Assembly: GCA_052327205.1 (NCBI GenBank)
Contig: CM126223.1
Coordinates: 51,956,001 to 52,020,000, forward strand
Source of the DNA: Somniosus microcephalus
Lineage: Eukaryota
DNA: 64,000 nt
Direction of reading: 5' to 3'
The notes below the pieces were generated by a model that saw only the letters and a list, made by a program, of their open reading frames with translations, ran no database searches and was not told the DNA's origin. A program made the translations under genes and the position numbers. Shown piece by piece: positions 2,896 through 51,000 of this stretch (positions are counted from its first letter, which is position 1; every line of letters begins with the position of its first letter).

Positions 2896-3069
<174 letters not shown>

Positions 3070-6000
3070 CTACAAAAACAAAACAATTTTAAAATCGGTA
3101 GCTTCAGGGCCCTAACGTAAAGCATCACGAACACATTCACCAATCTCCTTCAATGACAAATGCTCTGAACCGCCCCTTTTGACAGCAGAACTAAAGCACG
3201 ATATTTTAAATCTACATTTTCTTTTAGCATGGTGCAGAAATGCTGCTGCTTTTATCACGAAAGGAAAAATGAGAGAACGTAGTCAAATTCTAACAAATAC
3301 ACTCTTGTAAATCCTTGAATGGATTATTGATCACTTAGTAAATCAGTACATTTGATGAAGAAAAGTATCAAGTAAAAACTGCAGCAAAAGTGGCCATGTC
3401 TTTAGGTGCATCTACAGCAAAGGATATTTCAGCTCTAAAGAAATGCATATGGGGAATAGAGGAGATACAGGTTTATACTGTAGATCTGTATTTGACCTTT
3501 CACAGAAGTGATCATTTTACCTTAAGCTCAAATCTATATTTCACACCAGTCTTGTTCAGATGGATGTGAAAAAGACCCAAAAATATTTGAATAGTAGAGA
3601 GCTCTCCCAGCCAACAAATCAACTAGTCACTAATCTCTTGCTGTGTGCATCTGCAGAAATGACTCAAATTGCTCAAAGTGCAAATGCTTTGGGATGCAAT
3701 AAGAGGCTACATAAATGCAAGCTTTCTTGCAGTCCAAATGGATTTTACTGAGCTTTGGCAGCTTATACACCAAACAGGGCTGAATTTTCACCTATGTTCT
3801 TTAAGTGTGCACAGAATAAGCATACATGACTGAGGAATGGGACAGACACTGGAGCATTGTAGAACTGTCTACTCGGCCTAGAAACAAATTGGTTTGAATT
3901 ATCACAAGCCAAATGCTTAATCTTTCAAGCTATCTATGCAACATACCAAAAAAAAGGACATGGCACAAGTATTGCTTCAGTTGAGTAAGGGCATCTCAAC
4001 ATTATAAACTTGGATTCTACTTGAAACATGGGGGGCTTAGAGACCCCCTGTACCAAGTCTGTAGATTTAACTGAAAATTTAAGGTTGATGTAACGCTGGG
4101 GTTACAAATTTGAATCTCAATCTTCAATACTAATCCAGAACTCCCAAAAATGTTTCACCAATACTGATCATACAGGGTTTTTGTGGCACCTCACCTCCCC
4201 AATTAGGAGCACAACACAACAGCATTGAGATAACAACCCTACATCTACAGTAGTGATGGTATTCAAGAAGCTAGCAGTTACTGCAGGAATAGCACTCTGG
4301 GATTGAGATGCAGACATTGCTATATTAATTTATATGGGATTTTAATCAGTTTTAAAGTTCATACATTTGTAAGCAAATTCACATGCACTCACCCATTGGT
4401 GTATTGAGTCTGACTAATGCCAAGTGTTGTACATCAGAATTCATTTTTCCCATTAAATCCTAAATGTTGTTAAGTGGTTTAATAGAACCAATTAGAATTG
4501 GTTCTTTCTCCCCTTCCCTCAGCATGCTAGCTGTGCAAGGATACATTTCACATCTACAATTCCCACACTTGCATGTCTAGTCTTATCCATGACCTCTGGC
4601 AGCAAGTGCTCACCATCACTGCTCAAGAAAAATGGCAATCACCAAATCTGGTAGACGACTAGGCAAGAAGCTCAAGAGAGCAGTTGCTGAAAGTTTAGTG
4701 TGTACTTATGCTCTGGCTAGAGACAAGAAACTGGAGGCAGATGAGACTCAATTTATGGAAGAAGGATTAAGTAATTTAACCCTCTTTCCTCCATCTTGAC
4801 ATGCAATGTGTAGCATGAATATAGCCCAAAGCCAGATACTGAATTTTCAATGTGAACCAAGAAGCCATCCATTCACTAGTTACTAGGCTTACAGGCAGTC
4901 CAACAGGGGGGGAGAACCATGTTCACTGGCCTCCAGTATAGAGAACAGAGAAAAGCCTCAAAATTGTGCTTCAGCAAACTCAACAGTTGCTTACACTTAT
5001 ATTTTAGTTTTCACTTAAAGTACTAGATCAAAAGATTGATTCAAACTTGCATTTTAACATTACTGTAGTAACTGACAAGGTGGCTTTCCTCCTGAATCTT
5101 TGAGCTGGTTTGTTTCTGTGCCAGCCAGATGTCCCTAGTTGGATTTTGCTCCTTTTTAAAAAAAGAGCAGAATTAATGATAGATGAAGCTGCAAAACTGC
5201 AGTGCTAGCTTAGTGTCAGGAAACCTTAATGTGCATAATGTCTAGTTTGTTTTACAGATATACAAGTGTGATTTGTTCACATTGATGGCTGTTAAGCAGT
5301 CAATATTCTATTTAGTTTACAATGGTTTCCTCCAAACACCTTTGCTTACAGCTTAAAGTCAAACATCTAATTTTTTGCAAAAATCAGAGTCAAGCTTGTG
5401 ACCCAATGGCAAGGAACTCTAAGCAGGTCAGCTCACCAGCACTTTCATTATTCAGCTCAGTCAAAACAATGCAACTAAACTGGACATCTTGCCCTGCATT
5501 ATTTGAATCCATTTTATGATCGATGAGCAGTTGTTAAACTTTGGAAATACTGCAAAGTAGTGGTGTCATGGTTTGTTTAAATATATCCTACTGGAAAATT
5601 AGATTAGCATTAAACAAGATATTCTAGAAAACATGAAGACAACCTTCTGTAAATCCATATTTTAGCCAGCTTTACAATGGATATTCTGCCATCAATGTCT
5701 CCACATCCAAGAGCACTATCCTGCACAAATACAGAAGGAATACAGTCTGCTGTAAATAAGGTAGGGAGAAAGGCGGCAGCCTGCGCTGCAACATTTACCT
5801 GGTACATGTCCTGCCCATTCCAGACACAAGGAACAGCACAAAAGATAATAGCTTCCATCAGGAGCTGGTCACTCAATGCAACATTATACAAACTGACAAG
5901 CAGTGGAATAAGTTTAACATGGTTATCAAACTACAGCTCAAAATTTAGCACTAATAACTGAACAAACACCTCTCAATTCTGCAAACCCAGTTTAATCGGT

Positions 6001-7421: not shown

Positions 7422-7598
<177 letters not shown>

Positions 7599-23869: not shown

Positions 23870-26800
23870 TTGTGGTTATAGTTTCCTACGGTTGTGTGTA
23901 GCAGGGAGTGCTAGTAAACAAGGGCCCTTGAGTATATCATTTAATTGTAGTGTAATTGGTGGTATGGATTGATTTAATTTGAATTAAAGGGTAAGTCATG
24001 GCAGCCCCGTGGCATGCTCCTCCTGCACTATGTGGGAAATCAGGGCCCTGTGTCCCTGACGATCATGTGTGCAGGAAGTGTATCCAGCTGCAGCTACTGG
24101 CAGACTGCATCGCAGCACTGGAGTGGCAAATGGATACATACTGGAGCATTTGTGATGCTGAGGACATAGTGGATAGCACGTTTAGGGAGTAGGTAAAGGC
24201 TGCACAGGCAGGAAGGGGTGACCGCCAGGCAGAGTAGTAGGCACAGGCAGGTAGTGCAGGGGTCCCCTATGGCCATCCCCCTCAGATATACTGCTTTGGA
24301 TACTGTTGGGGAGATGGCTTATCAGGGAAGGCAGCAGCAGCCAACTTCCTGACACCATGGGTGGCTCTGCTGTACAGGACGGGAGGAAAAAGAGCAGGAG
24401 AGCTAGTGATAGGGGATTCTATGGCAAGGGAGATAGGCGTTTCTGCGGCTGCAAACAAGACTCCAGGATGGTATGCTGCCTCCCTGGTGCAAGGGTCAAG
24501 GATGTCTGAGCAGCTGCAGTGCATTCTGGAGGGGGGGGGAAAAAGGGTGAACAGTGAACAGCTAGTTGTCGTGCTGCATATAGGTACCAACGATTTAGGT
24601 AAAAAATGTTCTAAAAGCTGAATACAGGGAGTTAGGTAAATTAAAAAAAAAATAGGACCTCAAAAAGGTAGTAATCTCAGGATTGCTACCAGTGCCATGT
24701 GCTAGTCAAGAGTAGAAATTGAAGGATATTTCAGATGAATACGTGGCTAGAGAAATGGTACAAGGGGAGGGATTCAAATTCCTGGGACATTGGAACTGGT
24801 TTTGGGGGGGGGGGGGGGGGGGGGGGGGGTGGAAACCAGTACAAACTGGACGGTTTGCACCTAAGCAGGACTGGGACTGATGTCCTAGGGGGAGTGTTTG
24901 CTAGTGCTGTTGGGGAGGGTTTAAACTAAAATGGCAGGGGGTTGGAAACCTGTGCAGGGAAGCAAGGATAGAAGCAAAAGACAGGAAGGAGAAAAGCAAA
25001 AGTGGAAGGCAGAGAAATCAAGAGTGTAAATCAAACAGGGCCACAGTAAATAAGAATTCTAAAAAGGACTAAGTTTTAAAAAACCAAGCCTGAAGGCTGT
25101 GTGTCTTAATGCAAGGAGCATTCGTAATAAGATGGATGAATTAGCTGTGCAAAGAGATGTAAATGGATATGATAATATAATTGGGATTACAGAGACATGG
25201 CTCCAGGGTGACCAAGGCTGGGACTTCAACATTCAGGAAGGACAGGCAAAAAAGGAAAAGGAGGTGGGGTAGCATTGCTGGTTAAAGAGATTAACACAAT
25301 AGTAAGGAAGGATATTAGCTCTGATGTGGAATCTGTATGGTAGAGCCAAGAAATACCAAGGGGCAGAAAACATTAGTGGGAGTTGTATACAGACCCCCAA
25401 ACAGTAATGCAGAGGTTGGGGATGGCATTAAAAATGAGAAATTAGAGACGCGTGCAATAAGGGCACAGCAGTTATCATGGGTGACTAATCTACATATAGA
25501 TTGGGCTAACCAAATTAGTAACAATACAGTGGAGGAGAAATTCCTGGAGTGTATACAGGCTGGTTTCCTGGACCAATATGTCAAGGAACCAACTAGAGAT
25601 CAGGCCATCTGAGACTGGGTATTATGTAATGAGAAAGGATTGATTAGCAATCTTGTGAGGCCCCTTGGGGAAGAGCGATCATATGATGAATTCTTCATTA
25701 AGATGGAGCGAGTGAAGCAGTTGAGAGACTAGGGTCTTGAATTTAAATAAAGGAACCTACGATAGTATGAGGCGTGAGTTGGGGAACATTAAAGGGTTGA
25801 CGGTGGATAGGCAATGGCAAATATTTAAAGATCGCATGGATGAACTACAGAATTTGTTCAAGATTGGTGAAGTCAAGCGTAGGTCCCTTGCAGTCAGAAT
25901 CAGGGGAATTTATAATGGGGAACAAAGAAATGGCCGACCAATTAAATACATACTTTGGTTCTGTCTTCACAAAGGAGGTCAGGGAACATAGGGTCTAATG
26001 AGGGGGAGGAACTGAAATCAGTATTTGTAGGGAAATGGTGTTAGGGAAATTGATGGGATTGAAGGCCAATAAATCCCCAGGGCCTGATAATCTACATCCT
26101 AGGGTACTTAAGGAAGTGGCCCTAGAAACAGTAGATGCATTGCTAGTCATCTTCCAAAATGCGACTCGAACAGTTCCCATGGATTGGAGGGTAGCTAATG
26201 TTACCCCACTATACAAAAAAAGGTGGTAGAGAGAAAACAGGGAATTATAGACCGGTAAGCCGGACATCGGTAGTGGGGAAAATGCTAGAGTCCATTATAA
26301 AAGATGTAATAGCAGAGCACTTGGAAACAGTGACAGGATTAGACAGTCAACCTGGATTTACAAAAGGTAAATCGTGCTTGACTAATCTACTGGAATTTTT
26401 TGATGTAACTGGTAGAATAGATGAGTGAGGACCAGTGAATGTGGTGTATTTGGACTTTCAGAAGGCTTTCGATAAGGTCCCGCATAAGAGATTAGCATGC
26501 AAAGTTAAAGCACATGGGATTGGGGGTAAGGTACTGACTTGGATAGAGAACTGGTTGGCAGACAGGAAGCAAAGAGTTGGAATAAAACGGGTCTTTTTCC
26601 GAGTGGTAGGCAGTGACTAGTGGGGTACCGCAGGGATTGGCGCTAGGTCCCCAGCTATTTCACTATATATTGATCTAGACAAGGGGACTAGATGTAATAC
26701 CTCCAAGTTTGCAGATGACACAAAGCTGGATGGGCGTGCACACTGAGGAGGATGCAGAGAAACTCCAGTATGATTTGGACTGGGGTTTGGTGATTATACT

Positions 26801-27462
26801 GCATCTGCCCAATGTGGATAAATGCAAGGTTATCCACTTAGGTGGCTAAAACAGGAAGGCAGATTATTATCTGAACGGCAATAGATTGGGAGAAGGGGAA
26901 AGTGCAACGAGACCTGGGTGTCCTTGTGCACCAGTTGCAGAAGGTAAGCATGCAGGTGGTTAAGGCGGCAAATGGTATGTTGGCCTTCATAGGTGAGAGG
27001 ATTCGAGTACAGAAGCAAGGATGTCTTGCTGCAGAGGAATGACGTATGGAGAGAGAGATTGGGTCGATTAGGCTTATATTCGCTAGCGTTTAGATGAATG
27101 AGGGGATCTCATTGAAATAAAATTCTAACAGGACTAGATGCAGGAAGGCTGTTCCCGATGGCGGGGGGAGTCCAGAACCAGGGATCTCGGTCCAAGGATA
27201 AGGGGTAAGCCATTTAGGACAGATGGAGGAATTTCTTCACCCAGAGTGGTGAACTTGTGGAATTCTCTATCACAGGGCAGTTGAGGCCAATTCATTAAAT
27301 ATATTCAAGAAGGAGTTAGATATATTTAAGGCTAAAGGGATTAAGGGAGTAAGCAGGGACAGGGCACTGAATTTGGATGATCAGCCATGATCTCATTAAA
27401 TGGCAGCGCAGGCTCGAGGCGCCAAATGGCCTTCTCCTGCTCTTATCTAGGTTTCTATGTTT
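23870..27462 (+). mobile_element. Near full-length, inactivated CR1 LINE (ORF1 Cys motif plus SGNH esterase; ORF2 APE endonuclease plus RT; 3' tail)
   Basis: Fragments PDDHVCRKCIQLQLL, LVIGDS, VLHIGTND, DGLHL; LVGVVYRPPNS; KSPGPDNLHPRVLKE; YLDFQKAFDKVPH; tail ...gtttctatgtt; many frameshifts and deletions. 5' boundary approximate. Confidence 0.95.
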
Positions 27463-28926: not shown

Positions 28927-29406
28927 TTAAAGGAATTCAAAGCTCCTGAACATGCTTTCCTTTCTCTTCCCCAATCGGTTTGTAAAAGGATGCCAAAGAT
29001 GCATTTAAAGCCCCTATAACTGCACATGCCTCAGCCACCAGCACTAGATACAAGTGCTTTGAACAGCAAATTTGCTTCCAATGAAGAGAAAAATAATCAT
29101 GCAGGTACTTTTTGGCTACTTCTGCTGTACAGGAGCAAACAAAAGGCCAGCTCCCAAAACAATCAACTGTTATAGAAGCATCCTAGCAGGGTCTAGCTAC
29201 CTGTCTTTCCCTCCCCCTTAGAAGTATCCTTCTGTGTAGCACTGTTCAGATCAGTTGCTGAATGAAGAAAACAGCCAACCAACATTTGTTCATTAAAATA
29301 GCACTACACATGGGGTACAACTACCAGTGAGATTTAATACTGAGGGACACCATGCCACCACATACCCCAAAAGCAGGCACTTGGACAGACTTGGTCAACA
29401 TCTTCA

Positions 29407-29793
<387 letters not shown>

Positions 29794-31566
29794 TTAATCC
29801 AAAGACTAGGACTAAACAGATACTGCCAAGTTGCTCTACAATCTTTATTCAGCTCTCCATACTCCTCCCTCAGGCCTTTTGTTGGTGAGCCAGTAACTTC
29901 CAATGTAATGCCACAAGTTGGTAACCTTTTAAAAGGCAAACTTCATTTAGATGTTTCCCTTCAACATTCAGGTGAGAATAGCTTTGACCAGCAAATTTGT
30001 GGCCCTACAATTCAACCAGAAAACATGGAAATATTATGAAGAAGCCAATTTGTGAAGAAGCCAATTTGTGTAAAGTCTTGCTGATTGTCACAAGTTACAA
30101 CACTAGAAATTAATTAATTTTAGTTAAGGTTAAAATCAATGTGGTCCAAGTCACAGAACTGAAATCTCAGGACCAACTAGCTGTCTATTTGATGCTAGGT
30201 ATATAATAAAGGCATCCAGAGCAATGCAGTATCTGTCTATAGTTAATGCTTTTGTAAAAAGGGGACCTTTTACAAAATTGCATTACATGTGAATCAGAGA
30301 CATTCAGCTGTATGCATTTCTAGAGCACAACACCACAGCACTCAAGGATGGGAACATCTACAACTAGCACTCGAGGCCAACATTTTCCCACTTGCAAGAA
30401 TTGATGTGGAGCAAGGCTACAAGAGAATTACTGCAAACTGTACAATCCCTATACCAAAGATCTTGCTGAATTACTACATTTTAAAGTTTTATTCTTCGTA
30501 CTAAAGCTCATCCACAATTCACATCAAGAGTTAGGAGTGAAGTTGGGCCAATGTTACAAATTTTTGGGGGGGGCACAGCCCCTTTAAAGGGCTCTGTGGC
30601 CCACAGTTTCACATGTGCAAAATTTGACATTAGAAAAGCCAGTCCCAGGCTGAGAGAGAACAGCTGAGAGCTGCACAGCTTAAGAGGGAACATTGGGTTG
30701 GGCTAGTCTTTTTGCATGTAACTGTTATTTTCCTCCCAAAAATTCAGCTCAATCTTATTCCATAGGAAGTTAGTCTCTAGACATTCTAAGACCCTTAACA
30801 GGGAACAGAACAAAGGGCAGGTTTCAGTCCACACTAGTGGACCAAACAGCCTTTTCTTGTTTGAGCTGGACAAAAAAAAAATTAAAGCATCATTTACTCA
30901 ATTGTGGTCAGACAAAAGCTGGAAAGAAAAAAAAATCCTCCCAGCTACTTAAGTGCAAGAAAGTACAGGGGGAAAAAAACCAACTGCTTAGTGCTTGTTC
31001 CCATCCCAAATATCCAGTAATACACAACACTACATAGCAATCAAGATGCAAAATTCAGGCTCAAGGCTCGGTTCTGGTCCGGTTCATAAACTGCAGCTTG
31101 CATTCCCTCACCCACCTATCTGAAGTTTCAGAATTCAGACCGATACAAACAAAATGCCTAAAAAAGTCTCGAGTTGGTGGGATTTAGCAAGTTGAAAGTC
31201 CAGCTCAAGATAAACTTACAACTATGAAGAGATAGCCAGCCATGACCAGGAAAAGCCACGTCCAACAGTTTTCCTCCATTTTATTTCTACCTCCTTTACT
31301 GCAGCTGGCTCAGGTTTGAGTGCTTTGAGATTACCTACACTGATTCTACAAAGATGTTAAAGGTATGTACAAATGTTAAGTGTCCAGGCAGGTTTGTTTT
31401 TTATAAAAAAAGGTTCAGTACATGTGGTTAGTCTTCAGCTACAACAGCTAACATTTCAGACATGTGATTCTGAAGACTATGAAGCATGAAAATGGTCAAG
31501 ACCCAACAGGCAGTTAAGTTTTATAAACAGGACCAGTCTCAAGAGTCGAGATTTAAAGTAACTCAC

Positions 31567-31569
31567 CAT
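31567..31569 (-). CDS. CLTC: Candidate 3-nt CLTC microexon (ATG) in intron 2; inserts one Asp (LK-D-AGK)
   Basis: Minus strand reads actgattcaattactttgcatttttttactgctttctttgtgtataagcag|ATG|gtgagt: long pyrimidine tract, TGC motifs, CAG acceptor, strong donor, frame preserved. Confidence 0.65.
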
Positions 31570-32829
31570 CTGCTTATACACAAAGAAAGCAGTAAAAAAA
31601 TGCAAAGTAATTGAATCAGTAAAACAAACTCCTTCAGATATTAAGTGTCACAAAAGCAAGCTTATAATTAAGTTAACCTTTGGTAGCCTGTTCTGTAGAT
31701 TTAAATCTCCACTATTTTATAATCTCCACTGTATTTTATAATGTGCCATACAGCAGCAGATTTAACACATGAAGCAGGCACTGCACGTCACTAGTAAACT
31801 TAATTTCCTACCTAAACCAAGTGCCATATGTATCAAGAATTTTTCAGCTTCCATATTTTTGCTTTTAAAAATAATTTATGTCAATTATACATGTAGACAG
31901 AGTGGAGGACATCAGGGGTAATAGCTAGGGGAAGCTACTGAACCAATGAGAAACCGAGATGTGTTGGCTTCAGTTGTTAATTCAATCAGGAACAGTAACT
32001 CCTCCAAACCAGCTCCTAATGTCATCAGCACTTCCTGCATAAAAGATCAAAAAATGTAGAACAGAAACAGTTAACATTCATAATTCTTTGTACAAGGCAA
32101 GAGTAGTATGGATTTTAAAGCAGGTCTTAAAATGGGCATTTAAAAAAATTCAGCCAAAATGCTAGCAGTGTTAAACATACAAAAAATGCAAGCAAAAGCT
32201 TCCTCCCATTGACTTTGCCCAAATGTAAGAGTCAGATAGATGATGGCTAGCTGGGTGTCAAGTCTATCCAGCAACTAGAATCCAAAATCAAAAACATTTG
32301 CTCAGGTTATCAAGCCAATCACACTGCAGCTTTTATTCTCTGCTGACACCAAATGTCTACCACCACAAGACCTACATCCACAGTATGTAGATGTGACAGT
32401 GAGAAACCATTTAAAGCTTGAGGACCACTGAAGTAGAATAAGCTGCACAGCAAATATTGTAGGTTGAAAGTCTAAAAAGGCAGTTTATTTCTGCAGTTGG
32501 GACTGGCCCTATTTATGCCTCCAGTTTACTTTCCCACCCTGTGCTATACTCTGCAAGACCAGCTGCAAACAGAAAATTGGTTTTATGCACATGTCCAATG
32601 TAATGACATTGCAGAGGGGTTAGACAATGGCTGGGGATTTGTGTTAGTAATGACAGTGAAAACTCGTGTTCACCCTCATTACTCCAAAACTGACAGCAAC
32701 TTCTGGCATCTGCACATGTGCAGTTAAACACAGAAATCCAGAAGTTGCCAGTGATTTCCCTGCTCCTCCACAGGGTGCACAGTTAAAGTCTTCAGATAGA
32801 AATCTAAAGATCACTTGAATTGGCAAACT

Positions 32830-32860
<31 letters not shown>

Positions 32861-33764
32861 TTACACTCCAATCTCACTGTAAAAACCTCTGGGGGAAAAA
32901 AAAAGTTAAGCCTTCTTGAATGTGGTGTAACTGGGGCATACAAAGTCATAATTACTGAAAACCTCCAACCTTGACATTCCACAAATAAATTTAGTTTTTC
33001 AAGATTCTCCATTAGTTAATGATATTTCAACTTAATCCCATGTGTATGTCCCAATCTTTATTTTTACTCTAATATTATCTGAAAGGATAATCAGTGCTTT
33101 TTTTAATTTTTTTAAATAAACTTCCTGGCTTGCTGTCTTGAGAATTCTTAACTGCGATTGGCTGCTCAGCCTGCTTGATGACACTGTTGCAAGATGCCAG
33201 AGATCCCTACACATGGCACCACAATGAAATTAATGGTAGGAAAGGTGAAATAGATGCCACAGACATCACTAGATGTTTGTGGGCAGTTTTGAGGTCGCTG
33301 ACTGCAAAATCCAGGCCATTCAGTTCTCATTTAGCGGGCCAAAAGCAGAACGTGAATCCAGTGGCAGTACACAACAAAATAAGTGGTCACTGCCAATAAA
33401 AAATATTTAGGCTTGTCTAGTTTTAATTACTGCTACCTACACATTTACCAGTAAGATGCAATGTAAAAGCACCTTAATAGGAACAGGGAACTAGGTTTAA
33501 AGTCTGAACCACCCACAACTTGCTTTAAGCAAACTACCCAGAGGATTAAAAAAAAACAAATGGCACTTTCCTCATTTTGCCCCACAATTTGCTTTCACAA
33601 TACATGAGTTTTAAGAACTTGAATTTTGCACTGGAGGACATGGTGGGGCAGGCTGTGCTATTTCCAGTATACACAGTTCATTGTGATATCATCTACAAGG
33701 TTTTACTTCATTAGGAAGCACAGGCTTGCCTGGAGTTAGCTACTATTCATTCTCAGGAACAGTG

Positions 33765-33900
33765 TTGCTGGCAAGGCTGGCATTTATTGCCCAGCCAATT
33801 GCCCCAAGTGATACAACCAAGGGTAGTGTCAGCCACATTGGTGCAGGACTGGAGTCACAAGCAAGGTTTCCTTCCCAAAAAGGACATTAGTGAACCAATT
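33765..33900 (-). mobile_element. SINE 3' fragment, same family as 46020-46405
   Basis: ctggcaaggctggcatttattgccc...ctggagtcac...aaggacattagtgaacca. Confidence 0.65.
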
Positions 33901-36232
33901 AGTAATTGAAATCTTAAGCTTAAGCACTGGGAAGATGTCCAATTTTAGGTGACTACCAAAGTGAAATACTAAACAGTAATATTTAACTAAAGAGCAGTTT
34001 TACAAAAATAAAATCTGTCTTAAATAAATTTGGATAATTTCAACTACTTTAAGTTAAAACCCACACTGTAGCAATTGGTTTTCAATTAAAGCCTACTGCA
34101 GATATATTAAGCCAACCTCATTTAAGTACTGCAGGTTATCCATTGATACACAATCAACTGGAGGTTGAATAACTACAGTAAAAGTACACTCCGCTAGATC
34201 AGAGGTGACCAAGTGATAAAAGCCTGAATTTTCTGACAGGGATGAAGTCACTGGAGAATTCCACATCTGCCTTATTGGAGCACGAGGAGGAAGCATGGCA
34301 ATTGCATCTCCCCTCATCCAGAAAAAGACCTAGATGCAAGAAAGAGACCTGGACGCAAGATTTAACAAACGGTTTACTTGACAAGATAGCCAAAAACCCT
34401 TAGCTGGATGAGACTCCATCCTAAATCCAAATTGTATTGGATGCCCAAACAAGCAAAATATTTCAGCTGTTGTAAAGATCAGTTTCTGAATGCTTCAGCT
34501 AAAACTTACTTTGCAAAATGCCTACATTAACACACTAAGCTAAACATTCAATTCTACCTGGACCAGCTAGAGGCAGCTGGAACCAGATACTGATCACTAC
34601 ATCAAAGCTCGTTTCTTGCAACATTTCAGTGGCTCAGCAAGCTTTATTCTACAGTTACCCATACTGAAGGGCAAGTGAAAGTGATCTTACTGCCTTTCAC
34701 TAAAGCCCATTACAAGTAACTACATTCAAAAACAATGTTAAATATGGATTTCAGATAAGTGGGTAAAAATTGAAATCATCCAGTATATTTGGACAACTGG
34801 GATGTGATTTATTGTAAATAAAAGCAAGGTACAATCACCATGAACAATGCACTAAACACCAGCATTTGTTGCAACTAACCATCTGATCAGTTCCTTGCAA
34901 GCTTTAAGTTGGTCAAAAGTTTTAAGATTTATATAATTTGTATTCCCAATTAGGTCCATCTTAATTAAAATTAGTTTCTCTGCACATGAGCCTGCATTCC
35001 TCACCCTCTGGTAGGGAACACAAGACCCTCCTACTAGCATGGGGGGCATATTTCTTGGTTGTGTTGTCAAGATGCCCAACTTCAGTGGCATCTCTTTTCT
35101 CCCCCCCCCAGAATCTTAATCCATATTCTGTGATCCTGAATCATGACTTTTGAATCATCTAGAAGAAAATATTGGCGACTAAGGGATCTGTTTTGCAAAA
35201 ATGTTCTAAGCTATCTGCTGCTCTTCATTTGCACTAGTTTTGCCTATTTAAGTTTGGAGCATTTAAAACAGCTTCTGACAGATTGGAGTTGATTTAAGGG
35301 ATGTTTTGAGAATGGCAGGAGTCGAGATACTAAGTAACAGATGGCACAGGATCAGAATTGAAAGGTGTCAGTGTTTACTAGTACAAGCATCCTAGAAGCC
35401 AGTGACCAATAGGCTCATCAATTCTGCTGGCACACAAACTACTGGAATTCCATTGCTCCAAGAAGATCAGAGAAAAGCCTGTGCAGACTAGGAGCACCAG
35501 CTGATACTGCCCTCGGGTGTGGGCTGTTAAGTTAGCTTTCAGTTTAAGCAAACATGCACTAGTGATGTAGGGAAAAGTCAGTGAACACAGATTCAAGAGG
35601 GTACTGAACAGTTCTGGTGTGAATGAGCCAGAGGAGCAACCATCATTGCTGGTGACCTCTTGCTAAGGCCAAGTACAGAATTATCCTTTTCAATGTGCAC
35701 TGGCAACAAAAGGTGCTGCCATGACCAGCAGGAGCAGATAAGAATCAGTTACCACAAAACCAAGATGTCCTTCTGCTAATGTCCCATTTGAATCAGTCCC
35801 TTGCACCAAGTTACCCATGGACACAGGCAAAGACGATTGTTACATAAACATGATACAGCTACCATGTTGCAAATCCAAGCTTTGGAAACAAGTGAACTCT
35901 AGGTCAGTGCAAAAAATTGAGTTTTATGCACTTCTAGGCACTGGTAACTAACTTCTCAAATTGAAACATGTGCACTTGCCATCATTTGAAGCCACTAGTC
36001 AACAAGTCCATAGCTGTGTTAAGGGAACCATTTACAGATGAATGCCAATGTAGTGACAAGACAATGGCTCAAGCCTGCACTAAAGAAAGTTCAATCCAAA
36101 ACAGACAGGAATGTGGAAAAAGCCATCTGTAAACCTAGCAATCAGTACTAAAGCAGACATCAAACTCTCCCCACTGGCAAACATTACAAAAATAAATCAG
36201 CACCTTTTAGTCAATTGCCACCAAACCATTTA

Positions 36233-36478
<246 letters not shown>

Positions 36479-36854
36479 TCAGCATTCAAAGTGCATCTAG
36501 GCCAAAAAAAGTTACACCAATCAGAGGATGCTGTGCAAGAGCGAGATGTGGAAACATGGATTTAAATCCATGAAATTCTCTTTGCTACAACCAAGTCCTA
36601 TACACGAGATCAAAATAAATGACCACTTGGTTATATAGTCGAGACCCAGAACTACTAATGGTTCCAATAAACTTTACTTATTTTCAATGTTGATGCCCTA
36701 CACCATGAGAAAAAAAGATAAACCAAGTGATGTTACACCATGCTTAAATTTTAAGTCTGTAGGAAGACTTTTAGACAAGGAAGAGTTTGGTTGCTTCAGC
36801 AAGCCAGGCATACATGCTTGTACACCAAATTACCTCGGATACTAACCACAAATG

Positions 36855-40496: not shown

Positions 40497-41850
40497 CCAT
40501 AGAAACATAGAAGATAGGAGTAGGCCATTTGGCCCCTCAAGCCTGCTCCGCCATTCAATGAGATCATGGCTGATCATTGAAATTCAGTACCCAGTTCCTG
40601 CCTTCTCTCCATATCCCTTGAGCCTTAAGAAATATATCCAACTCCTTCTTCAATATATTTAATGAATTGGCCTCTACTGCTTTCTTTGGTAGAGAATTCC
40701 ACAGGTTCACCACTCGGTGAAGAAATTCCTCATCTGTCCTAAATGGCTTACCCCTTATCCTTAGACTGTGACCCCTGGTTCTGGACTCCCCAACCATCAG
40801 GAACATCCTTCCTGCATCTAGTCGGTCTAGTCCTGTTAGAATTTTAAACGTTTCAATGAGATCCCCTCATTCTTCTGAACTCCAGCAAGTACAAGCCCAA
40901 TCAACCCAATCTCTCATACATCATTCCTGCCATCCCAGGTATCAGCCTGGTGAATCTTTGCTGCACTCCTTCCATGGCAAGAACATCCTTCCTCAGATAA
41001 GGCGACCAAAACTGCACACAATACTCAAGATGTGGTCTCACCAAGGCCCTGTACAACTGCAGCAAGACATCCTTGTCCCTGTACTCAAACCCTCTCGCTA
41101 CAAAGGTCAACATACCATTTGCCTTCTTAACCGCCTGCTGCACCTGCATGCTTACCTTCAGCGACTGGTGCACAAGGACACCCAGGTCTCGTTGCACTTC
41201 CCCTTCTATTGCCACTCAATAATCTGCCTTCCTGTTGGACACCAAAGTAGATAACCTCGCATTTATCCATGTTATATTGCATCTGCCATGCTTCTGCCCA
41301 ATCACCCAACTTGTCCAAATCATCCTGGAGTTTCTCAGCATCCTCCTCACAGCACACACCCACCTTTGTCTCATCTGCAAACTTGGAGATATTACATCTA
41401 GTTCCCTTGTCCAGATTAATATATCTGGTGAATAGCTGGGGTCCAAGGACCAATCTCTGCGGTACCCCACTAGTCACTGCCTGCCACTCGGAAAAAGCCG
41501 TTTATTCCAATGGCTTTCTGTCTGCCAACCAGTTCTCTATCCAAGTCAATAGCTTGCCCCCAATCCCATGTGCCTTAACTTTACACACTAATCTCTTATG
41601 TGGGACCTTATCAAAAAGCCTTTTGAAAGTCCAAATACACCACATCCACTGGTTCTCCCTCATCTATTTTACCATTTACATCCTCAAAATTCCAGTTGAT
41701 TAGTCAAGCACGATTTATCTTTTGTAAATCCATGTTGACTTTGTCCAATCCAGGTCACTGTTTTCCAAGTGCTCTGCTATTACATCTTTTATAATGGACT
41801 CTAGCATTTTCCCCACTACCGATGTCAGGCTTACTGGTCTGTAATTCCCC
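40497..41850 (-). mobile_element. 5'-truncated CR1 LINE (RT plus 3' UTR)
   Basis: Minus-strand ORF fragments TSGVPQ..LGPQLF, ISKFADETK, LYRALVRPHLEYCVQFWSP, ESRTRGHSLRI; tail catagaaacatagaa. Confidence 0.95.
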
Positions 41851-48009: not shown

Positions 48010-51000
48010 TAAAACCAATATAGTTAAAAACCAGGAGGAGGTCCTAAAAGCTGAATATAGGGAGTTAGGAGGTAAATTAAAAAAGACCTCCAAAAAGTAG
48101 TAATCTCAGGATTGCTACCAGTGCCATATGCTAGTCAGAGTAGAAATAGAAGGATATTTCAGATGAATACATGGCTAGAGGAATGGATTCAAATTCCTGG
48201 GACATTGGAACCGGTTCCGGGGGGGGGGGGGGTGGGACCAGTACAAAACAGACGGTTTGCACCTGGGTAGGGCCAGGACCGATGTCCTAGGGCAAAGTGT
48301 TTAAACTAAAATGGCAGGGGGTTGGGAACCTGAGTGGGGAAACAGGAAAAAAGGGAAACAAGGATAAAAGCAAAAAAGACTAGGAGAAAAACAAAAGTGA
48401 CAGGCAGAGAAATCAAGGGTTTAAATCAAACATGGCCACAGTAAATAATAATTCTAATAAATCTAAGAGCATTAAAAAAAAAGCCTGAAGGCTTTGTGTC
48501 TTAATGTGATGAGCATTTGTAATAAGGTGGATGAATTAGCTGTGCAAATAGAGGTAAACGAATATGATTTGATTGGGATTACAGAAACATGGCTCCAGGG
48601 TGGCCAAGGCTGGGAACTCAACATCCAGGGGTATTCAATATTTAGGAAGGATAGGCAAAAAGGAAAGTGAGGTGGGGGTAGCATTGCTGGTTAAAGAAGG
48701 GGTTAACAATTGTAAGGAAGGATATTAGCTCTGATGTGGAATCTGTATGGGTAGAACTGAGAAATACCAAGGGGCAGAAAACATTAGTGGGAATGGTATA
48801 TAGGCCTCCAAACAGTAATGTGGAGGTTGGGGATGGCATTAAAAAGGGAAATTAGAGAAGCGTGCAATAAGGGCACAGCAGTCATCATGGGTGACTTTAA
48901 TCTACATATAGATTGGGCTAACCAATTTAGTAACAATACTGGAAGAAGAATTCCTGGAGCGCTTACGGGATGGTTTCCTGGACCAATATGTCGAGGAACC
49001 AGAGATCAGGCCATCTTAGACTGGGTATTATGTAACGAGAAAGGATTAATTAGCAAGCTTGTTGTACGAGGCCCCTTGGGTCGGAGCAATCATAATATGA
49101 TCGAATTCTTCATTAAGATGGAGAATGAAGTAGTTGACTCAGACTAGGGTCCTGAATTTAAATAAAGGAAACTACGATGGTCTGAGGCATGAGTTGGGTA
49201 GGATTGATGGGGAATGTCACTCAAAGGGTTGACAGTGGATAGGCAATGGCAAACATTCAAAGACCACATGGATGAACTACAGAATTTGTTCATCCCAGTT
49301 TGGCATAAAAATAAAACAAAAAAAGGTGACTCAACCGTGGCTAACAAGGGAAATTAGGGATAGCATAAGATCCAAGGAGAGGACATATAAATTGGCCAGA
49401 AAAAGCAGTAATCCAGAGGATTGGGAGCAGTTTAGGATCCAACAAAGGAAGACAAAGGGATTAATTAAGAGGGGGAAATAGAGTATGAGTGTAAGCTTGC
49501 AGGGAACATTGTAAAAGTTTTTATAGATATGTGAAGAGAAGATTGGTGAAGTCAAGCATAGGTCCCTTGCAGTCAGAATCAGGGGAATTTATAATGGGGA
49601 ACAAAGAAATGGCTGACCAATTAAATACATACTTTGGTTCTGTCTTCACAAAAGGAGGAGGACACAAATAACCTCCCAAAGATGTCAGGGAACATGGGGT
49701 CTAATGAAGAGGAACTGATAGAAATCAGTATTTGTAGGGAAATGGTGTTAGGGAAATTGATGGGATTGAGGGCCGATAAATCCCCAGGGCCTGATAATCT
49801 ACATCCTAGGGTACTTAAGGAAGTGGCCCTAGAAATAGTAGATGCATTGCTGGTCATCTTCCAAAATTCGATAGACTCTGGAACAGTACCCATGGATTGG
49901 CAGGTAGCTAATGTTACCTCTGTTCAAAAAGGGTGGTAGAGAGAAAATGGGGATGAACAGACCGGTAAGCCTGACATCGGTAGTGGGGAAAATGCTAGAG
50001 TCCATTATAAAAAGGATGTAATGGCAGCGCACTTGGAAAAAAGGTGACCGGATCGGACAAAGTCAACATGACTTTACGAAAGGTAAATCGTGCTCAACTA
50101 ATCTACTGGAATTTTGAGGATGTAACTGGTAAAATAGAAAAAAGGGAGAACCAGTGGATATGGTGTATTTGGATTTTCAAAAGGCTTTCGATAAGGTCCT
50201 GCGAGATTAGTGTGTAAAATTAAGGCACAAGGGATGGGGCAAGGTACTGACTTGGATAGAGAACTGGTTGGCAGAGAACTGGTTGGCAGACAGAAAGCAA
50301 AGAGTTGGAATAAACAGCTCTTTTTCTGAGTGGCAGGCAGTGACTAGTGGGGTACCGCAGGGATCGGTCCTTGGACCCCAGCTATTCACAATATATATTA
50401 ATGATCTGGACGAGGGAACTAGATGTAATATCTCCAAGTTTGCAGACGACACAAAGCTGGGTGGGTGTGCGCGCTGCAAGGAGGACGCCAAGAAACTACA
50501 GGATGATTTGGACAGGTTGGGTGATTTGGCAGATGCAATTTAATGTGGATAAATGCCAGGTTATCCACTTGTCAAAAACAGGAAGGCAGATTATCTGAAT
50601 GGCAATAGATTGGGAGAAGGGGAAGTGCAACAAGACCTGGGTGTCCTTGTGCACCAGTTGCTGAAAGTAAGCATGCAGATGCAGGCAGTTAAGGAGGCAA
50701 GTGGTATGTTGGCCTTCGTAGCGAGAGGGTTTGAGTACAGGAACAAGGATGTCTTGCTGCAGTTGTACAGGGCCTTAGTGAGACCACATCTTGAGTATTG
50801 TGTGCAGTTTTGGTCACCTTATCTGAAGGATATTCTTGCCATGGAAGGAGTGCAGCAAAGATTCACCAGACTGATACCTGGGATGGCAGGAATGACATGT
50901 GAGGAGAGATTGGGTCGATTGGGCTTGTACTTGCTGGAGCTTAGAAGAATGAGGGGATCTCATCAAAACTTATAAAATTCTATCAGGACTAGACAGACTA

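Follow-up and report, generated by a model that had tools for sequence, protein, structure and literature searches.

The trinucleotide ATG at 31569-31567 on the minus strand of the window (the whole stretch of 64,000 nucleotides analyzed here, from contig CM126223.1 of the shark Somniosus microcephalus) corresponds exactly, in position and phase, to the published 3-nt microexon of vertebrate CLTC. In this reading, to which we give a probability of about 0.88, it is a cassette likely included in the retina and possibly the brain, likely under SRRM3/4 control, and its product carries Asp84 on the rim of the clathrin-box groove; this residue is predicted to make adaptor binding weaker or to re-tune it. 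The 3-nt CLTC exon is real and already known, and since Ciampi et al. 2022 (PMC9303857) have published it together with the mechanism proposed here, it should not surprise a specialist. The contribution here is therefore one of age and breadth, a known exon being met in an older lineage, and only its origin before the gene duplication and before jaws may be new.

Results

The candidate microexon (31567..31569, minus strand) is surrounded by a complete set of putative splicing signals, all on the same strand. A branch-point-like CTGAT, whose function would be that of the branch site, is located 50 nt 5' of the exon (31615..31619) and is followed by a pyrimidine-rich tract (31573..31614) with two TGC motifs at -35 and -22, a motif whose role is known from PMC9303857; 21 of the 30 nucleotides 5' of the CAG acceptor are pyrimidines. 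The CAG (31572-31570) yields the 3-nt exon, and a consensus 5' splice site GTGAGT, as read from the sequence, lies directly downstream (31561..31566). An earlier note had listed these same elements, and its reading of the minus strand was exact. It had overlooked, on the other hand, the AAG immediately 5' of the CAG, which makes the acceptor a tandem one (AAG-CAG, 31570..31575). Splicing at the first AG would produce an exon of 6 nt and add Ala-Asp, and this two-residue insert is found in 0 of the 442 parsed homologues, so the longer exon was rejected.

The exon lies 4674 nt into the 6472-nt intron 2 of CLTC, with exon numbers in the window assigned by homology. Exon 2 (36244..36451, minus strand; Pfam Clathrin_propel) encodes residues 15-83 plus one base, ending in phase 1, and aligns with residues 15-83 of solved clathrin terminal domains, so the extra residue sits between K83 and A84. 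Exon 3 (29503..29771, minus strand) opens with the second and third bases of the Ala84 codon. Translation of both forms gives K-A-G when the microexon is skipped and K-D-A-G when it is included, in agreement with the phase-1 end and the Asp-Ala codons (G|AT G|CT) previously proposed. A self-BLAST of 29400-36600 against the whole window returned a single 43-nt repeat match, away from the microexon.

The host gene is a cartilaginous-fish CLTC. Over residues 173-973, encoded by the downstream exons, the window shares 98.5-99.4% identity with four shark and ray CLTC models, and over these 801 residues its identity to tetrapod CLTC is about 96%, against 90-91% for the CLTCL1 of turtles/reptiles and birds. 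In a quick maximum-likelihood tree built on the same residues (34 rows), the window gene groups with the four shark and ray models (SH-aLRT 98) and falls within the CLTC clade (96), outside the CLTCL1 clade (100); the Lampetra row, only 49% filled, was misplaced and left unused. A CLTCL1 identity was thus rejected on both the tree and the identities. Short motif searches of 36452-64000 did not find CLTC exon 1, and intron 1 thus probably exceeds 27 kb. A reverse-transcriptase fragment (Pfam RVT_1) occurs upstream of exon 2 at 41130-41501 on the minus strand, and open reading frame translations suggest further LINE-like frames near 48500-50900 and 24000-27100, one of them having no Pfam match.

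Taken on its own, the microexon motif exceeds chance only modestly. The bare pattern YAG-NNN-GTRAG(T/G) occurs six times in the window, and 192 of 1000 dinucleotide-shuffled versions of the intron contain it at least once, as would be expected if a chance AG-NNN-GT arrangement had simply arisen within 6.5 kb of intron. Against this, the pattern is accompanied by a pyrimidine tract in 25 of 1000 intron shuffles and by both the tract and a TGC in 16, and the further, post-hoc demand of an acidic codon leaves 2 of 1000. Moreover, the residue and the junction match the published conserved exon exactly, which makes coincidence very improbable. It is this orthology with the published CLTC exon that leads us to take the shark feature as real, the motif alone being insufficient. 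The TGC at -22 and -35 place the UGC near the 3' splice site, as in SRRM3/4-dependent microexons, even though a lone trinucleotide is weak evidence.

The published exon, HsaEX0015816, is a conserved and highly retina-specific 3-nt CLTC microexon that adds Asp at the clathrin-box groove, and the legend of Fig. S3 places K83 and A84 on either side of it, with Asp taking position 84 (PMC9303857). For the feature described here, the host is likewise CLTC and not CLTCL1, and a 3-nt exon in the K83/A84 intron gives an Asp84 product. According to Dataset S1 of the same paper, human inclusion is 57.8% in retina, 1.1% in neural and 0.05% in other tissues, with corresponding values of 63.3, 6.5 and 0.25 for mouse and of 58.2, 0.01 and 0 for chicken; inclusion that is high in the retina and low elsewhere, which characterizes the RetMIC class, is thus found in the three amniote orthologues. 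The earlier note had proposed a groove Asp that could tune adaptor binding in neurons. The location in the blade 1-2 clathrin-box groove and the response to SRRM3/4 agree with PMC9303857, whereas general neural inclusion does not stand for amniotes, given the neural values above.

Inclusion in fish looks broader than in amniotes from the zebrafish data, bearing in mind that gene, length and order alone served to pair the zebrafish events with the human one. The 3-nt events of cltca and cltcb are absent from the danRer10 retina-specific list of PMC9303857 and reach 24.9% and 51.2% inclusion, respectively, in heads at 24 hpf. It is quite possible, at a little under even odds, that the same exon and regulators operate in the shark with high and broadly neural inclusion, and that retina specificity is a later refinement of amniotes. 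The zebrafish values are in line with this, as is the frequency of Asp forms among teleost models, which came from searches seeded with Asp. However, inclusion is confined to the retina in three amniotes, in zebrafish eyes it climbs with photoreceptor maturation (from 39 to 72.5 and from 52.5 to 86.7; PMC9303857), and Asp is found in 0 of the 4 shark and ray protein models fetched, two Asp-seeded searches and two cluster look-ups having yielded no cartilaginous-fish Asp form. This alternative touches tissue alone and does not conflict with the other parts of the preferred explanation.

The same 0/4 count would also fit a silent remnant, that is, an orthologous exon preserved in sequence whose inclusion was lost in the shark lineage. 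However, the branch-like site, tract, TGC motifs, acceptor, frame and donor are all intact, when unused intronic signals are expected to decay over such a time. A second microexon of the gene is intact as well. This candidate (5799..5810, minus strand) is a 12-nt, phase 0 exon encoding DMYQ, identical to the insert of a woodpecker CLTC model (P0225). The intron that hosts it, bounded by one exon that ends at 7434 and another that starts at 3069, contains seven AG-N12-GTR candidates, of which the DMYQ one lies at 5810-5799, and across 307 models DMYQ is the sole insert found at this junction. The remaining 306 are devoid of it, so absence from gene models is weak evidence of non-inclusion, and this applies equally to the missing Asp. 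Altogether, we regard a silent remnant as unlikely. In human, a 12-nt retina microexon of CLTC (HsaEX0015815) lies some 27 kb 3' of the 3-nt exon, and from the event length and order given in PMC9303857 the exon at 5810-5799 is likely its orthologue. The conservation of this second microexon in the gene supports our reading of the 3-nt exon as a functional cassette.

For the evolutionary depth of the exon, 523 proteins were fetched, of which 81 were dropped because the junction was unspanned or unparsed, leaving 442. The survey is enriched in inserts, as an Asp-bearing lungfish model served as the query in two of the searches, and its entries are gene models rather than measured isoforms. At the junction, two residues are present in 383 models, three in 58 and one in a single model. 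The extra residue of the 58 is Asp in 55, Glu in 2 (lamprey) and Ala in 1, for an acidic total of 57/442. By best identity, 26 of these 58 are CLTC, 30 CLTCL1 (one by a tie) and 2 lamprey. On the CLTC side, Asp forms occur in lungfish, teleosts, one bird and two mammals, so the fish CLTC isoforms with an extra Asp mentioned in the earlier note do exist among lungfish and teleost models. Asp carriers of the CLTCL1 clade (P0233, P0235, P0241, P0245, P0252 and P0301 among them) belong to teleosts, Xenopus, Eleutherodactylus, two turtles and Parus. Both forms of the same junction are represented in Parus CLTCL1, with and without Asp, and in the sea lamprey Petromyzon (P0102, P0103 and P0104), with Glu-insert and insert-free models. 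Among the matches listed, the insert is absent from named invertebrate models, and the Asp insert is absent from mammalian CLTCL1 models.

A few single models are odd at this junction. The turtle CLTCL1 model P0021 reads K-D-G-E, which would fit splicing of exon 2 to ATG followed by read-through into a GTGAG donor. Also, P0220 (bird CLTC) is eight residues longer, P0232 (gecko CLTCL1) one residue shorter, and P0308 (killifish) has an extra Ala; these three may reflect faulty models or alternative splicing.

Discussion

Based on this distribution, the acidic one-codon switch probably predates both the jawed vertebrates and the split between CLTC and CLTCL1, having persisted in the CLTC of the shark, in the CLTCL1 of teleosts, frogs, turtles and birds, and, as Glu, in lamprey. 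A single ancestral neural or photoreceptor exon for adaptor tuning would thus be common to both heavy chains. The intact shark copy and the second microexon fit the proposal in PMC9303857 that a retinal microexon program existed in the jawed-vertebrate ancestor, a proposal that drew on bony vertebrates only, and Asp in CLTCL1 together with Glu in lamprey would push the origin of the exon further back. Shark, lamprey and CLTCL1 copies were not found in print in open-licence PMC and bioRxiv; the SI appendix of PMC9303857 does not contain the terms 'shark' or 'lamprey' and its 18 supplements do not contain 'cltcl1', and some copies may be visible in its Fig. S3B (conservation across 100 vertebrates), in VastDB or in bioRxiv supplements.

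Regarding regulation, inclusion would be promoted as photoreceptors mature by SRRM3/4 acting on the upstream UGC motifs, which are the published binding motif of these factors (PMC9303857), a step taken from other species; in the shark, by comparison with other vertebrates, inclusion would occur in the retina and perhaps the brain. According to PMC9303857, SRRM4 raises inclusion of the human exon by at least 15 points in 3 of 7 experiments, and in HEK293 cells SRRM4 adds 7.9 points and SRRM3 alone only 2.5 (one experiment). In the eyes of srrm3 mutant zebrafish at 5 dpf, inclusion falls from 72.5 to 34.7 for cltca and from 86.7 to 48.3 for cltcb, a loss of about 38 points. This retention of 35-48% inclusion in the mutants, along with the small effects in HEK293, suggests that the dependence on SRRM3/4 is partial. 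Control by MSI1 was also considered and rejected, as the first TAG downstream of the exon is at +88 and the human change in inclusion is 0 in 2 of 2 experiments (PMC9303857).

At the protein level, Asp84 is predicted to displace the hydrophobic contact of A84 with the clathrin-box peptide. This follows a modeling argument on the 5M5R structure, where Asp at position 84 is said to disrupt the contact of A84 with the AP2B1 peptide (PMC9303857); the literature searched yielded no measurement of how the Asp form binds. Retinal triskelia would then be a mixture of legs, predicted to be more reliant on the arrestin, W and Royle boxes. Adaptors can dock at four sites on the terminal domain, of which a single functional one is enough for transferrin uptake, and clathrin-box mutants lose capture of the AP2 peptide and keep that of the amphiphysin peptide (PMC5182127). 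Since one site sustains uptake and amphiphysin capture is kept, the effect of Asp84 may be small, and the redundancy of sites makes a shift in adaptor preference more likely than a block of endocytosis.

Finally, the candidate exon can be compared with three known systems. With HsaEX0015816, MmuEX0011805 and GgaEX1065990 it shares the gene, the length, the K83/A84 position, the Asp product and the upstream UGC motifs, and the zebrafish counterparts DreEX0022256 (cltca) and DreEX0022266 (cltcb) are 3-nt events described in the same paper; unlike the exons of these four species (PMC9303857), the one reported here belongs to a cartilaginous fish and is known from sequence alone. The muscle microexons 31 and 33 of CLTC (PMC13676984) are likewise tissue-specific and diversify the clathrin heavy chain, and the main text of that paper contains none of the terms 'retina', '3-nt', 'shark' and 'lamprey'; they differ in being muscle exons and in that exon 33 alters the C-terminus. 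On the other hand, like the neural microexons that depend on SRRM3/SRRM4 (eMIC), the candidate exon is tiny, preserves the frame, has UGC near its acceptor and lies in a vesicle-traffic protein, whereas its amniote CLTC orthologues are nearly missing from non-retinal neural tissue and respond only moderately to SRRM factors (PMC9303857).
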